NCBI GenBank assembly: GCA_951406725.2
Contig: OX597814.1
Coordinates: forward strand, 166,098,001-166,162,000
Origin: Octopus vulgaris
Lineage: Eukaryota
Length of the DNA: 64,000 nucleotides
Reading direction: 5' to 3'
The notes under the pieces are model-generated. The model searched no databases. It was not told the DNA's origin and saw only the letters and a list, made by a program, of their open reading frames with translations. Below are positions 4,650-57,170 of this stretch, piece by piece. Positions within the stretch are counted from its first letter, which is position 1, and every line of letters begins with the position of its first letter. The position numbers were made by a program, and so were the translations under genes.

Positions 4650-5190
4650 ATAATAATAATGAAATTATTGTATACAGTGCTCAGGTGCACCACTGCTTGT
4701 CAAAAAGTGTGTATAAAGTATATGCAGTAATGTACAAATGTCTGGAAAGCGAACTGTGTATGAGTCAGATATATGCTTGCGTGTGTATGGAGGGGAGAAA
4801 ATCAGGTGTAGTGTTGGCGAATCTCAGGAAGCATGGAAGTTTTGAAGGATGCAGTGCTCCGACAACTAACAACTGATGCCGGCAGTCTGTTCCATGCTTC
4901 AGCAACTCTTAGCGTGGAAAAATGTTTCTGAAAGTCATGGGAGCTGTGCTGTTTTCTGACTTTATAAACATGTACATGGGTGTTAGACAGGTAGAGTTTG
5001 AAAAGGTGCTCAGAGTTATTGTTTGTACAATGGTTAATAATTTTATGGGTGTCTGCCAAGTCAGCTGCCAGACGTCGGAGTTTCAATGTGTCCATGCCCA
5101 GATGATTAATATCCAGACGATTAATATCCTGGGCAAGATAGGGGTTCCAGACCGGTGATGCAAATTCCAGGTGAGGTCATACCATAGCTT
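4650..5190 (-). mobile_element. CR1-type LINE 3' fragment
   Basis: RRLAADLADTHKII..RVAEAWNRLPASVV..SFK is the CR1 ORF2 C-terminal pattern. Short (TAT)n tail near 4650. Confidence 0.8.
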
Positions 5191-11703: not shown

Positions 11704-12581
11704 ATGAGGTACATTTCAGAAGTTTGCAGACTTTTTTAGGACATGCCATTATAAATATCTGAGATTGTAATTTTAGTTATATCATTACTATATATTTAAT
11801 AAGCTGACCTGTCAACTTTTGTTATTCCAGATCGAAGGAAACAGCTGTAACAGCACTTTGAAAACATCCTGCTTAAACACTGCTCATCACAGATGGCTAG
11901 TTTGCAGAAAGCAGTGGGGGTGCTTGGAAGCTTGTTGTGCAAAAACACTACAGAAATTTATGAAATGCACCAGACTTATTATAGATTGACTTTTTCTCTG
12001 ACACCAAAGGTTCATAGATGGCTGAAAGGAGGTGAGAGATGACGAGCAAATCGGGAGCAAGAGGGACATCAGAGCTGGTTGAGGCAATTTGCAATTTTCT
12101 GGATGAAGACAATTTGTGTCTATAAAGACAATAAGCACACAATTTAGAGTTGGTATGGCAACTGTACACAGAATTATTTGCGGAAATCTGGACATGCGCA
12201 AATTTTGTGCAAAGCTTGTTTCCAGGGTGCTCAGTGTTAAGCATCCTGGTAACCAATTACTTGACAGAGATTGGCATCAAAATTGTCTCTCGCCCTACCC
12301 ATAGTCCAGACCTTACTCCCTGTGACTTTTGGTTGTTCCCCAAGCTGAAGGAGAACCTCAGGAACAGTCATTTTGAAGATGAAGGAGGCTGTGACAAAGG
12401 TCCTGGAAACCTTCACTTTGGCGGACTTCCAAGGTGGCCTTCATGAACTGGCTGGAGTGCCACAACAAGTGCACTGAAGTCAGAGGATCCTACTTTGAAG
12501 GAGGTTGAGGTTTTGTACTTCCCTGAAATTAATAAGTGTCTCTCCTGAAAAAGTCTGAAAACTTCTGGCATGCACCTTGTA
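11704..12581 (+). mobile_element. Internally deleted mariner transposon
   Basis: Degenerate TIRs at both ends. Reads RKFCAKLVSRVL (WVPR-like) and HSPDLTPCDFWLFPKLK (YSPDLAP.D motif). Confidence 0.85.
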
Positions 12582-18545: not shown

Positions 18546-20209
18546 ATGTATGTTCTTTTATTCTGTTACTTGTTTCAGTCGTTTGACTGTGGCCATGCTG
18601 GAGCACCACCTTTAGGTGAACAAATCAACCCTAGGGCTTATTCTTTGTAAGCCTAGTACTTATTCTATTGGTTTCTTTTGCCAAACCACTAAGCTACGGG
18701 GATGTAAACACACCAACATTGGTTGTCAAGCGATGTTGGGGGGGGGACAAACACAGACAAACAAACATATACATGTCTATATCATCATCATCATCATCAT
18801 CATTGTTTAACATTTGTTTTCCATACTAGCATGGGTTGGATGGTTTGACCGGGGTCTGGGAAGCCAGGAGGCTGTACCAGGCTCCAGCCTGATCTGGCAG
18901 TGTTTCTACAGCTAGATGCCCTTCCTAATGCCAACCGCTCCATGAGAGTAGTGGGTGCTTTTTACGTGCCACCAGCACAGGTGCCAGGGGAGGCTGGCAA
19001 TGGCCACGATTGGTTGTTGCTTTTTAAGTGCCACCAGCATGGAAGCCAGTCAAGGTGGCGCTGGCATCGGCCACATTTGGATGGTGCTTTTTACATGCCA
19101 CCGGCATGGGTCTCATAACTACAATTTCCATTTGATTTTTATTTGATGTTGATATATATATATATATATATATACATACACGATGGGCTTCTTTCAGTTT
19201 CTGTCTACCAAATCTACTCACAAGGCTTTGGTCGGCTCAAGTAGAAGACACTTGCCCAAGGTGCTACGCAGTGAGACTGAACCCAGAACCATGTGGTTGG
19301 GAAGCAAGCTTCTTACTACACAGCCATGCCTGAGAATAGTATTGATAGTAACTTCAAAGTATATTGTAATTAAGTTATGCATGCATAAAATGACCCAGGA
19401 TCTTTGGCAGGTCATGGGAGCACTCCTAATGTTTCATCATACTGACAAAGCTGGTCTTTCTCCAGAGTATTGTGCAAAAATGAATTATCAAGTAATTGAA
19501 ATTCTATTCACTGAGAGGCTGACTGCTAATCTATGGAAGTTGTTCAAATTGGCAAATATTCATGTATTCTTTTATTGGTTTCAGTCTTTTGGACATTAGC
19601 CATACGAGTTTACCACCTTCAAGGATTTTTAGTTAATTATTTTCAGTTTCAGTTCTTACTTCAGTTCCTATTTTATTGATTTTTAGTTACCGAATGGCTA
19701 AGTTTATCTTTGATGTAAAGAGTCATAACTCAATAATTAACTACATAGGTTATTTTTGTTTGGTTCATTGATTTACACACACACACATGCATGTGCACAC
19801 ACATATACATTTATAGATACATACATATTTGTACATGAACACATGTCTGTAACTTTCTGTTGCTTCTTAATCAATCAAATATTTTTTTCTTCTCTTAGTA
19901 TCTTAGTTCTTTGAGAATTTATTCTTAATATCTTGAAATAACTATCTTTTCCTATTCAGAATCATTGACAATCACCACTAGGTTTTTTTTTACTTTCTCG
20001 GCATATGAAGAAAATTTTAACAAATTAAGGTGCAGCCATAGCTGTTTGGTTCAGAAGCTTGCTTCCCAACCATCTGGGTTCAGGTTCAGTTTCACTGTGC
20101 AGCACCCTGAGCAAGTGTCTTCTACTAAAGCCACAGGCTGACCAAAGCCTTGTAAGTGGATCTGATAGAAGGAAACTGAAAGAAGACTGTCTAAATATAT
20201 ATATATATA

Positions 20210-20507
20210 TATCTGTAAATGTAATATGCGACAATTATTCAGTAGCCATGATAAAACTCCAAGTTTCGGATGTCGGGGTGGAAATCCATGCCGCCATCTC
20301 TTCAGTTATCTGGCAGCGTGGATTTCCACCCAGACATCTGAAACTCGGAGTTTTATCATGGCTACCAAATAATTGTCACATATTACATTTACAGATAAAT
20401 TCCTCTATTTACATAATATCGAGGTCTCTTTCATTCTTTTGTTGTCTTACCATTTCTATCAATATATATATATATATATATATATATTGATAGAAATGGT
20501 AAGACAA
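20210..20507. mobile_element. Hammerhead-containing foldback element flanked by (TA)n (non-autonomous PLE/retrozyme-like)
   Basis: 87 bp arms at 20210-20296 / 20311-20397 with a 14 nt loop. Tail 20398-20460 is shared with 24710-24895. Confidence 0.75.
20250..20310 (-). ncRNA. Type I hammerhead-ribozyme-like motif
   Basis: Minus: gataa CTGAAGA gatggcgg..ccgacatc c GAAA cttggag TT ttatc. Stems I, II and a near-palindromic stem III are present, with one extra C before GAAA. Confidence 0.65.
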
Positions 20508-21157
20508 GAGAGAGAGAGAGCGAGCGACATATGTATGTGTGGGTGTTGTGTGGGCATTTGTGTGTACCTTTGCAAAATAGTGACTCATACCCAAAGAAAA
20601 ATCTATTTCCCATACATTTAATACTACTGAAGATTTAAAATTTAAATGCCAGTTGCATGAAGGTATTTTATCATTTCACTCCTCTCATATTCACATTGAA
20701 CATTTGTGGTCCATACAACACCCAGGCCACTGGCATACTCTCTTTGTTTTACCTTGTTTACAGTTACTATGACACAGTTTGTTTATCAAAACTTGTCAAA
20801 AGCATCCTATCTTTATTGGATACTATTAGTATCTATTAAAGGTAGGGTACATTTGACAAGGTCAGGTCATTTAACTACTCCCTGTTAATCATGCTGCATG
20901 TATGTGCATGTTTCTCATGCTCTAAGCTCTTCACTAAATATTTTATGTAATACTCTTTCCTGTGCAGGTGATCTCATAGAAGTGTCAACTTCTAACTTAT
21001 AACCCTTTTAATACCAACAACCCACCTAAGACTGTCCTTATTGTATGATATAGACTTGTTGTTTTTAAGTGATCTAAATTAAAACCTTCCATCAAAACTC
21101 CATATTTATTTGTGTTCCTAACTCCAGTTTCATAATAAAAAAAGTTATTTTACTAAA

Positions 21158-24663: not shown

Positions 24664-24709
<46 letters not shown>

Positions 24710-24713
<4 letters not shown>

Positions 24714-24894
24714 AATATAATATGTGACAATTACTCAGTAGCCATGATAAAACTCCGAGTTTCAGATTTCAGGGCTGAAACTCAGAGTTTTATCATAGCT
24801 ACCAAATAATTGTCACATATATTTACAGATGAATTCCTCTATTTACATAATATCGAGGTCTCTTTCATTCTTTTGTTGTCTTGCCATTTCTATC

Positions 24895-24895
<1 letters not shown>
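24710..24895. mobile_element. Second copy of the (TA)n-flanked foldback family, centre missing
   Basis: Same arms and tail as 20210-20460 but lacks the CTGAAGA core and stem II. (TA)n on both sides. Confidence 0.8.
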
Positions 24896-24938
<43 letters not shown>

Positions 24939-26778: not shown

Positions 26779-27167
26779 CTTTTACTCTTTTACTTGCTTC
26801 AGTCATTTGACTTTGGCCATGCTGGAGCACCGCCTTTAGTCGAGCAAATCGACCTCAAGACTTATTCTTTGTAAGCCTAGTACTTATTCTATCGGTCTCT
26901 TTTGCTGAACCACTAAGTTGCAGGGACGTAAACACATCAGCATCGGTTGTCAAGCGATGTTGTGGGGACAAACACAGACACACAAACACACACACACACA
27001 TACATATGTATATGCGACGGGCTTCTTTCAGTTTCCGTCTACCAAATCCACTCACAAGGCTTTGTTCGACCTGAGGCTATAGTAGGAGACACTTGCCCAA
27101 GGTGTCACGCAGTGGGACTGAACCCGGAACCATGTGGTTAGTAAGCAAGCTACTTACCACACAGCCT
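26779..27167 (-). mobile_element. SINE family B
   Basis: Colinear with 40758-41166. Confidence 0.88.
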
Positions 27168-44531: not shown

Positions 44532-44750
44532 GGTGCAGGAGTGGCTGTGTGGTAAGTAGCTTGCTTACCAACCATATGGTTCTGGGTTCATTCCCACTGC
44601 GTGGCACCTTGGGCAAGTGTCTTCTACTATTGCCTCAGGCTGACCAAAGCCTTGTGAGTGGATTTAGTAGACGGAAACTGAAAGAAGCCCGTTGTATATA
44701 TATATATATATATATATATTTGTGTGTGTGTTTGTGTGTCTGTGTTTGTC
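44532..44750 (+). mobile_element. SINE family B 5' half
   Basis: Pol III A/B-box-like head and CORE-like segment, truncated after the internal microsatellite. Confidence 0.85.
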
Positions 44751-49812: not shown

Positions 49813-51837
49813 CAGGGGTGTGTAATTTATGGCCTGTGGGCTGCATGTGGCCCACCACAGAGTTTTCAGTGGCCCACAGAAGCATTCAGCAAGAAAAATT
49901 TTCCAAGTCTAAAATTTTCATAAATTGATCAGTTTTCTCTTTGCATCAATAAGATCTGTAATGTTCTGATCCGAGAAAACATGGGCCCTCTTAAAAAGCA
50001 CAAAATCGAAAAAGAATGCTGCGCATTCAATGAAGACTGGAAACACAAATATTTGTTCAATAATTCAGGGAATAAGGCAGAGTGTTTACTGTGTCATGAG
50101 ACAGTTGCCATATTCAAGGAATACAATTTGAAATGACACCACCAAACAAAACATGGTGAGTTTGGTAGTCAAATGTCCAAGAAAAAATGCAGGAAAAAAA
50201 GCTGCTGAGTGTGTTGTGAAGCTGAAGAAGCAACAGACCATATTTACGAAGCAATTGACATGTCAGGATAGTACTACAGAGGCAAGCTACATGGTTGCAT
50301 ACTACCTTGCTAAAAACAAGCCATTTTCTGATGGTGAATTTGTTAAGCAGTGCTTGGTTGTGCAAGTGTCCTGTGCCCTGACACAAGAAGCAAATTTGAA
50401 ACCTTTTCATTATCAAGGACTATGGTGCAACACATAGACTTAATTAGTGACGAACTAACAGAACAGCTGAACACTGGGAGTAAAAATTTTATTTGGTTTT
50501 CTTTGGCACTGGATGAGAGCAATGTTACTTATCTTTGAGGAATTGATGAAAATTTCATCATCACAGAGGAACTACTTAGTTTGGAATCAATGAAAAATAC
50601 AACCACTGTTTAAATGTGTTGTGGATTGTGTGGAGAAGAGTGCCTTATTATGGAATACAATGGCAAGCATTACAACAGATGGGGCCAGAGCATTTACTGG
50701 AAAAAATGTAGGTATGATTAAACTTTTAGAGAACAAGTTAAAATCAGAACATCCAGACAATGATATCTTGTCTTTTCAATTTATTTTGCATCAGGAAAGC
50801 TTCTGCAAAACCATATTGAATCTAAAGCATGTGGTGGATCCTGTTGTGAGCATGGTGAACACAATCAGAGCAAGAGCACTCTACCATCAACAATTTAAAT
50901 CTCTGCTAGTGGATAAGGAAGCAGAACATGGAGATGTGATTTACCACAACAGTGTTTGGTGGTTGAGCCTGGGCAAAATGGTAAAACAGGTTTCTGAATA
51001 ACAGAATGAAATCTTCCTCTTTCTGGACATGAAGGGGCCTTCATGTGATTTTGTAACCAAAATGGGATGTGAGGAGTGGAGATGTGAGATAATGTTTGCA
51101 GCTGATATGTTTGAGAAATTGAATGAATGGAATGTGACATTGCAGGGAAAGGGGTTGTTTGTACATGAAATGTTTAGGCATGTGAGATCATTCAAAACAA
51201 AAGTAGATTTATTTGCAAAGCAAGCTGGTGAGGGCAAGTTTTATCATTTCCTTTTATTAAGAAAACAAAGAAGTGTTTCTTCCAAGATTAGGGATCATTT
51301 TCTGAGTTTGGAGGATGAGATCAAAAGAAGGTTTCAGGGTTTTAAGAAAATTGAGCCTGATTTAAATTTGTTATCTTATCCTTTCACTGCTGATATTGAT
51401 ACAGCACATGAGGAGGTGCAGTTTGAACTAACAGACATGCAGTTAGATCACATGCTGAAAGTAATGTTTAACTCTGTGACATTGACAGAATTTTACAAAT
51501 CTCTATCTACTAACAAATTTCCATGTTTGAAGAAATTTGCTGGGAAAATGTTTTCTATTTTTGGATCCACATATGTTTGTGAGCAAAGATTTTCTTGCAT
51601 GCAAATCAACAAGAGTAAAAAATAGATCCTCTGTGAGTGACATAAACATGCAGGCAGTGATGAGTATCTCAACAAGCAACCTCACAACTGATTTCAAAAG
51701 ATTTGTGAATAAGTGTGACAGGTTACATTTGTCTCATTAAATTACTTATGCTGGCTGATGTGTAATTTGCACATAAATGAATTTAATGAAGCCTTTTCTG
51801 TGTACCACTATTGTTTTAGTTTCATTTATTGTTATTA

Positions 51838-56344: not shown

Positions 56345-57170
56345 CAGTAGATGAAGATTATGGCAGATGACATACTTGGGGGATCAGCCTCACCATCTGG
56401 TGAAGACTTAACCTGCCATCACATTGGCTGCTATACAAGAAGCAAGAAGATGTGGTTTCTGGGAGATGAAGTATCCACCTAGCTCATACACGGATAACTG
56501 TGTCATTTGGAACTTGAAAAAAGTCTTGCATATTTTTATGATCCACTCATAGATTATATTTGTAATGTACGAATCAGCCGGTCAATTTCTCTTTTTGAAA
56601 ATCCCAGTTTATCCAGATTTTCCTTGAAGCATTTACTAACAAAACCTAGTGCTCCAATTATTATTGATATGAATATGAATTCATAGTCTGGATATAGAAG
56701 CTGGAGGTTTCGAAGCAGTTCTCCATAGATATCTTCTTTTTCTTTAATTTTCAAAGAGATAATTATATCTGCAGAACAGCTGACATCTATGATGGTACCC
56801 TCTTTTGCCCTTCTGTCCCAACCAGCAATATCTAGCCTGTTATAATTACATTTGACAGAAGTTTTGATGAGAATATTCAACCAGTATTCGTTGAGTTGGT
56901 GTTTATGAATGTATTCCATAACAGAGGGATTTTCTAAGTTTATTTCAGGACAGTCTTTTTTTTGAATGGCATTGTAAATTGTTTTAGCAACAACATTGTG
57001 CCACATAGAGAGGTAGTGCTGTAACAACATTTTAGGACAACTGCTAATCATATACATAATGTCATCACAGAAACATGACATAGCCTATATATGCGGATGC
57101 ACCTTGGGATTACAAGAATGTCACAGTCTCTCTTATTTACCAGGTACTTTGTGGCAATCTCCTGTTCTTG
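56345..57170 (-). mobile_element. R4/Dong-like RLE retrotransposon 3' fragment
   Basis: ORF 56554-57081 has a decayed zinc knuckle (ISSCPKM), HNVVAK, NRLDI, IIDVSC, EKEDIY and IIGALG. Confidence 0.8.

Follow-up and report, generated by a model that had tools for sequence, protein, structure and literature searches.

A hammerhead-bearing hairpin in Octopus vulgaris as a probable scar of a head-to-head Penelope-like element insertion

How does the catalytic core of a hammerhead come to lie in the loop of a long hairpin? This question is raised by positions 20210-20464 of the 64,000-nt stretch of Octopus vulgaris DNA analysed here (the window), where the original prediction had placed two 87-bp inverted arms around a 14-nt loop reading GAUAA-CUGAAGA-GA on the minus strand. 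This description was accurate: the arms (20210-20296 and 20311-20397) paired at 79 of 87 positions, the loop between them measured 14 nt, and its minus strand read as given. The predicted fold of the minus strand over 20200-20410 reached -139.7 kcal/mol (z -21.9), a stability that none of 200 shuffles equalled. The differences between the arms had been described as mostly CpG transitions and, judged against the family majority, six of the eight mismatches were of this kind, with one transversion at a CpG and one non-CpG transition. Two features were absent from that description, namely a 67-nt tail at 20398-20464, borne by the right arm and lacking from the left, and a (TA)n tract on either flank. 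The features of the locus, including those of a second family copy in the window, are as follows.

20195-20211, no strand: (TA)n target tract on the left, closing a ~150-bp interspersed repeat
20210-20314, minus strand: short-start arm, a 5'-truncated 3' end of a Penelope-like element (PLE) with the whole hammerhead inside, 92% identical to copy L072; spans -59 to +45 in element coordinates counted from the cut site, with its terminus in the left (TA)n
20297-20310, minus strand: hairpin loop, the stretch of the short-start arm reaching past the long-start arm
20311-20397, plus strand: body of the long-start arm, a sense 3' end truncated at -41, 93% identical to L072 including the tail
20398-20464, plus strand: PLE tail, 67 nt, between the short and long 3' ends, on the long-start arm only
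20463-20487, no strand: right (TA)n target tract
20485-20507, minus strand: ~20-nt stub of the same PLE tail end, on the opposite side of the right TA tract
24709-24905, no strand: second family copy, head-to-head with a one-sided tail, another junction and no catalytic core

The two arms meet in a 4-nt overlap, TGGC, at 20311-20314 (gap -4). The long-start arm lacks the 5' strand of stem I and the core, and within a minus-strand transcript it is antisense to the hammerhead. The stub at 20485-20507 is likely a separate, very short insertion; together with the tail end of the right arm it makes a second small, perfect hairpin (20442-20507). The arms of the second copy (24709-24905) are shorter than those of the hairpin at 20210-20464.

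The surroundings are rich in other repeats. The PLE stump is inserted in the TA tail of an interspersed repeat that is ~150 bp long and terminates in (TA)n; we take this repeat to be SINE-like, and it occupies 20041-20192 and 10 other places in the window (including 44544-44687, 27016-27165 and 19188-19313), with 72-82% identity between copies. Broken frames at 50132-51625 (plus strand) presumably derive from a hAT/SPIN-type transposase, and the short frames at 12135-12446 (plus strand), 4802-5176 (minus strand) and 56554-57084 (minus strand) presumably represent a mariner transposase end and two non-LTR retrotransposon C-termini. An imperfect 34-bp inverted repeat with a 1-nt loop lies at 20792-20860.

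To place the hairpin in a family, we searched the 2.8-Gb genome with the window element and obtained 3,901 first-look candidates, 40 of which were scored. Exact patterns matched the genome 412 times for the upstream-plus-core stretch, 991 times for the tail end and 1,792 times for the core, while their reversed controls gave no match. In two longer copies, L037 and L072, the sense strand extends upstream through a 3' UTR into a GIY-YIG frame. This frame gave 13,408 candidates genome-wide (150 scored), and 50 loci around its matches were examined. L072 is 92-93% identical to both window arms. A member of a younger sister family, L095, has an intact 708-aa ORF read from an ATG, with which the reverse transcriptase (RT) piece of L072 shares 81% identity over 254 aa. 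The L095 ORF is arranged in tandem with a unit of ~2.59 kb, the hammerhead and tail lying between units, and across hammerhead and tail the sister family is 79-84% identical to the window copy. From the window's own subfamily there were broken RT and endonuclease (EN) pieces, 81% identical to the sister-family ORF; none of the 50 loci held an intact ORF of this subfamily, the longest being 337 aa. The 708-aa ORF had no tblastn match in the 64-kb window.

The L095 unit, shorter than 3 kb, has a single ORF with an RT and, at its C terminus, a GIY-YIG endonuclease. It contains RWK at residue 37, DKT at 114 and CSCRNKELC at 557 (CxCX5C), with CGLCDME at 660 (CxxC) and N...CPH at 682 (CxH) around the E and N residues. 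By inspection, its endonuclease is without the CCHH motif, since no cysteine occurs between the IIY and YVG triplets (576-598). Pfam gave a weak GIY-YIG match on the full 708-aa ORF, below the cut-off (E=0.018), and nothing on an 80-aa EN piece, while a homologue search with the 708-aa ORF returned 1,009 hits, many of them full-length. RWK, DKT, CxCX5C, CxxC and CxH are the marks by which Craig et al. 2021 (PMC8557442) define the Hydra clade. Copies of the family are flanked by (TA)n, as in the Hydra-clade insertion preference; their hammerhead lies in a pseudo-LTR, and insertions are tandem or inverted with a one-sided tail. By these motif tests, on which the clade label rests, the window hairpin would be a fragment of a Hydra-clade PLE. 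A PLE-type type I hammerhead with an inverted 5' segment had been anticipated, and the contiguity of the sense strand with RT/GIY-YIG coding sequence in longer copies bears this out. The proposal of a small non-autonomous element is not supported: what lies here is the 3' end of an element that codes for protein (L037, L072, L095).

We then surveyed the family copies. A tail-anchored sample was drawn from the first 100 listed tail matches, of which 90 were kept (the window itself, three other places on C1 and six on C2 were left out) and then trimmed to 87 by removing one copy without alignment and two duplicates; 26 raw inverted-arm hits to (TA)-like or upstream stretches were discarded. An adjacent inverted arm was present in 46 of the 87 copies, with none detected in the other 41. 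Loops of the 46 inverted copies ranged from 0 to 180 nt, and only two were window-like, with the core in a short loop. The complete hammerhead was found in both arms of 14 copies, in one arm of 16 and in neither arm of 16. The core was not enriched in the loop among these 46 copies, exactly one complete hammerhead being observed in 16 copies versus 23 expected under independence. No inverted arm carried a tail (0/46), in a sample that, being tail-anchored, cannot contain short-short copies. Near-symmetric arms were in excess, 15 of the 46 copies having arms within 11 nt of each other versus 6.4 expected (P=0.0007). For the sister family, we took 30 loci with two cores or ORFs facing apart, with short-gap cases included on purpose. 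Inverted pairs were present in 29 of them; their truncation points ranged from -58 to -2454, and the layout is the head-to-head one of the window copy at a scale of 0.1-4 kb. Overlaps of 1-5 nt occurred at 17 of these 29 junctions and at 7 of the 46 junctions of the older family, where divergence blurs the ends. The family has two sharp 3' ends, at +43/+45 and ~+110, each of which lies between ATA and AAT of the element sequence and continues into (TA)n. Fixed boundaries had been expected: the outer ends are indeed fixed, and the inner junction varies both in loop length and in sister-family truncation point, which is the outcome that had been named as refuting evidence.

Some copies showed junctions of other kinds. 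In three sister-family foldbacks on C1 (L222, L224 and L225), the arms meet at one and the same 6-nt palindrome, located immediately upstream of stem I; this is either a hot spot for junctions or a small unit that was copied in its entirety. At L043 (~1225-1490 of the sense-oriented locus) and L042, the loop between the arms holds a piece of the element's ORF start, suggesting extra template jumps during insertion.

The pairing of the two ends bears on how they were brought together. A long and a short 3' end were joined in 23 of 24 resolved sister-family pairs (six decayed, tandem or unresolved loci excluded); the exceptions to this pairing were L075 and L107 (long-long) and L216 (short-short). 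At all six sites tested, the two arms of one insertion had subfamily markers in common (Fisher p 4e-5 to 3e-3), and non-CpG identity was 0.937 between arms of the same insertion versus 0.921 between arms of different copies (31 pairs including the window, P=0.015). Because long-start and short-start ends from the same source are nearly always joined, twin priming on one RNA is suggested. With high confidence, we interpret the window hairpin as two 5'-truncated copies, placed head to head, of the 3' end of a protein-coding PLE with Hydra motifs; it sits in (TA)n, was likely formed by two-strand priming, and has a hammerhead that is predicted to be inactive. Both nicked target strands would have primed reverse transcription, one from each start site, and the two short cDNAs would then have been joined, likely through a few shared bases. 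The hammerhead is inherited from the parent PLE, and its core lies in the loop only because the two cDNAs ended at different points, one at -59 and its partner at -41. Family membership, contiguity with RT and endonuclease sequence, the (TA)n flanks, the two fixed 3' ends, the variable inner junction and the markers common to both arms are direct observations; two-strand priming, end joining and the lack of cleavage are inferred from them. A model of two primings, which may have used one RNA, followed by joining of the cDNA ends, appears to fit best, and later repair at hairpin tips could have further shaped the junctions. Several observations weigh against this explanation: the excess of near-symmetric arms, which two independent truncations leave unexplained; the junction common to L222, L224 and L225; the exceptions L075, L107 and L216; the absence of an intact ORF of the window's own subfamily among 50 loci; and the overlap at only 7 of 46 older-family junctions.

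A different account, put forward for rotifer Penelopes (PMC3846280), has a single template strand fold back and prime itself to give the inverted arm; alternatively, the arm would come from later palindrome repair. The agreement of the arms of one insertion in subfamily markers (6/6 sites) and the enrichment of near-symmetric junctions, some junctions falling on palindromes, are what such a process could leave behind. However, a copy made by fold-back cannot contain sequence missing from its template arm. It needs the tailed arm to reach further 5', whereas among the 46 inverted copies the tail-less arm did so in 30 and the tailed arm in 14; the window copy, too, has its tail-less arm further 5'. 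Later hairpin-tip deletions could blur this pattern, and we consider an origin by fold-back or palindrome repair unlikely.

Two-strand priming, the preferred explanation, may be taken a step further, although on balance we lean against this extension and offer it tentatively: PLE inverted insertions might be made by ordered twin priming on a single RNA, and the family hammerhead might be a working natural variant. One nicked strand would start at the short site, and the other would start at the long site beyond the tail, displacing the first cDNA. This single rule, if correct, would account for the one-sided tail, the common subfamily markers and the near-equal truncation excess. The working variant would be the family's hammerhead with its extra nucleotide before GAAA and, in the youngest lineage, a fixed U4C core. 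Searches of an open-access collection gave no direct precedent for twin priming in Penelope, which does not imply its absence from print.

We also investigated the hammerhead itself, whose parts are as follows.

20250-20310, minus strand: predicted minimal type I hammerhead, a descriptor match, with the predicted cut between 20255 and 20254
20310-20306 with 20254-20250, minus strand: stem I, 5 bp
20305-20299, minus strand: core CUGAAGA
20298-20269, minus strand: stem II, long and imperfect
20268, minus strand: extra C before GAAA
20267-20264, minus strand: GAAA
20264-20256, minus strand: stem III, near-palindromic
20255, minus strand: U17, in a GUU triplet

An exhaustive type I descriptor, tolerating one extra nucleotide beside stem II, matched the window at 20250-20310 alone, and a canonical-core match was obtained in 1 of 200 dinucleotide shuffles. 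The predicted cut falls where it had been expected, near 20254-20255. An Rfam scan included no hammerhead among its 79 hits at E<=1; these were microsatellite look-alikes of miRNA families. In the window copy, CUGANGA ... GAAA, the A15.1-U16.1 pair and H17 are all intact. Its core is the family-majority sequence, with every core position intact in 26 of 43 motif-covering copies. Among 13 hand-picked copies, position 7 varied while C3, G5, A6, G8 and A9 were fixed. With relatedness uncontrolled in these 13 copies, 89.6% of alignment cells were paired, both-sided changes occurred in three pairs, and the covariation score was equalled by 2 of 500 shuffles; one stem II pair was mismatched in 11 of the 13. 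Stem II does not close directly on G12 through a 10.1-11.1 pair next to the core and has instead an extra C or U before GAAA, which can also be drawn as a bulge one pair in. The extra C had been suspected of impairing activity in this copy. It proved to be a family trait, not damage to the window copy, with an extra nucleotide in 41 of 43 motif-covering copies (C in 32, T in 9) and in 13 of 13 aligned copies. A search of an open-access collection gave no direct precedent for an insertion before G12, which does not imply that none is in print.

Whether this motif could act depends on its context. For the isolated motif, the predicted hammerhead fold and the best fold differ by no more than 2.4 kcal/mol. 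Within the full minus transcript, the hammerhead fold is predicted to lie 62.5 kcal/mol above the hairpin, and in a nascent minus transcript ending at stem I, 50.4 kcal/mol above it, the hairpin being favoured even there because the antisense arm is transcribed first. The plus strand does not have the core in sense. The antisense arm would thus block ribozyme folding, as had been claimed, through a predicted bias of 50-62 kcal/mol; this bias fits a lock and not the switchable ribozyme that had also been claimed. These models predict that the hairpin keeps the window hammerhead inactive and leaves no second state accessible. Since the antisense arm is made first and has a predicted advantage of ~62 kcal/mol, the copy is likely silent rather than switchable. 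Genomic arm 5' ends showed no peak at the cut site, with 4 of 133 ends within -2 to +4 as compared with 15 within -20 to -3 and 13 within +5 to +22.

These results bear on the original prediction, which sees in the hairpin a discrete non-autonomous retroelement that is copied as one unit, with an antisense arm gating its ribozyme. Fixed outer ends (+45 and ~+110), enriched near-symmetric junctions, the junction recurring in three sister-family copies and a core that is the family majority (intact in 26/43) all speak for a unit. On the other hand, the inner junction varies, and an exact pattern for the window-like junction occurred at 7 places genome-wide versus 1,792 cores. Three of the seven have the same spacer and differ in subfamily markers, one being without a tail; for these reasons they appear to be independent events at a short GGC that they have in common. 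The second copy, at 24709-24905, is without a core, and the predicted bias of 62 kcal/mol towards the hairpin, with the antisense arm transcribed first, disfavours gating. We therefore regard a unit of this kind as very improbable. A MITE that targets TA and has a hammerhead-like loop by chance, to which the long inverted arms, TA flanks and high copy number might point, has practically no chance of being correct given the one-sided 67-nt tail, the variable centre, the 41 of 87 copies without a detected inverted arm and the hammerhead signature kept across subfamilies (position 7 free, rest of the core fixed), and, like any foldback DNA transposon, it is refuted by contiguity with the RT ORF and GIY-YIG sequence. 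Tail-end PLE stumps with an inherited hammerhead that is predicted to be locked shut make the hairpin likely an ordinary insertion scar, not a switch.

Comparison with known systems, based on sections of the cited papers, adds the family to a known kind of PLE whose layout and tail are already published (PMC8557442, PMC3846280, PMC11167929). 'Tail' is used here in the sense of PMC11167929 and PMC8557442. Hydra-clade PLEs such as Hydra-1_Obim and Penelope-13_HM likewise have a single ~700-aa ORF with a C-terminal GIY-YIG, share RWK, DKT, CxCX5C and CxxC/CxH with the octopus family and target (TA)n, and several listed Hydra families also have a 3' hammerhead with a 4-bp + 1-nt stem III and U17 (PMC8557442). 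Penelope-13_HM is annotated with a 5'-truncated inverted copy, and the Hydra-clade tail is often on one end only (PMC8557442); head-to-head 5'-truncated PLE copies with a one-sided tail have thus been published (PMC8557442, PMC3846280). The octopus family differs in its longer stem II (~11-12 bp, with mismatches), its unpaired extra nucleotide before GAAA and a tail of 67 nt versus the 30-40 bp described (PMC8557442), and it was set apart from Hydra-1_Obim by eye from the published supplement (PMC8557442).

The minimal type I hammerheads of metazoan PLEs resemble that of the window in their 5-bp stem I, long stem II and weak palindromic stem III suited to dimers (PMC4209133). They are mostly single motifs from truncated PLEs, with some opposite-strand pairs; Cervera and de la Pena (2014) described no cleavage for a single minimal motif and low cleavage for dimers (PMC4209133). 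The extra nucleotide in that report lies between 9 and 10.1, whereas the octopus family has it ahead of G12, on the 3' side of stem II. For the anole Poseidon PAc, Frangieh et al. 2024 (PMC11167929) described an AT-rich target of which both strands undergo cutting and extension, a tail delimited by two internal RT start sites, and insertion in vitro for which hammerhead cleavage is dispensable. Poseidon PAc belongs to a different clade, and the relevant sections report its start site without a strand difference and do not address the long-short pairing of inverted insertions, a feature of the octopus family (PMC11167929). Non-LTR retrozymes (PMC7229834; bioRxiv 10.64898/2026.07.22.740005) also have a type I hammerhead of PLE origin. 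However, they form tandem arrays (PMC7229834), whereas the window copy is head-to-head with one complete hammerhead, and we rejected its assignment to the retrozymes since head-to-tail hammerhead monomers are absent.

One locus elsewhere is retrozyme-like. L061 (C16:47252766-47257341) is a tandem array of ~41 units of 109 nt. Each unit is a hammerhead that terminates at the short 3' end, and after the array the orientation inverts to give two sense units; 41 units have the core on one strand and 24 pass the hammerhead descriptor. A dispersed retrozyme family was rejected, as a genome search found the array junction (41 hits) at this locus only. In the youngest, ORF-intact sister family (L094, L095 and others), a U4C core, CCGAAGA, is fixed and a U replaces the extra C. 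The CCGAAGA pattern had 3,335 exact genome matches, compared with 1,792 for the canonical-core pattern. U4C lowers activity in vitro and still supports viroid infectivity (PMC3088659).

By itself, the window copy matters little, as it is one among thousands of insertion scars. The family, in contrast, is a useful test bed, with a young intact-ORF family, thousands of insertions and two sharp 3' ends. How PLEs produce inverted repeats and one-sided tails is an open question according to PMC8557442, and because the octopus genome holds such a family, the idea that twin priming occurs on one RNA is open to tests by counting as well as in vitro. Whether PLE hammerheads must cut is a question on which the U4C core, fixed in the family with the most recent activity, has a bearing.
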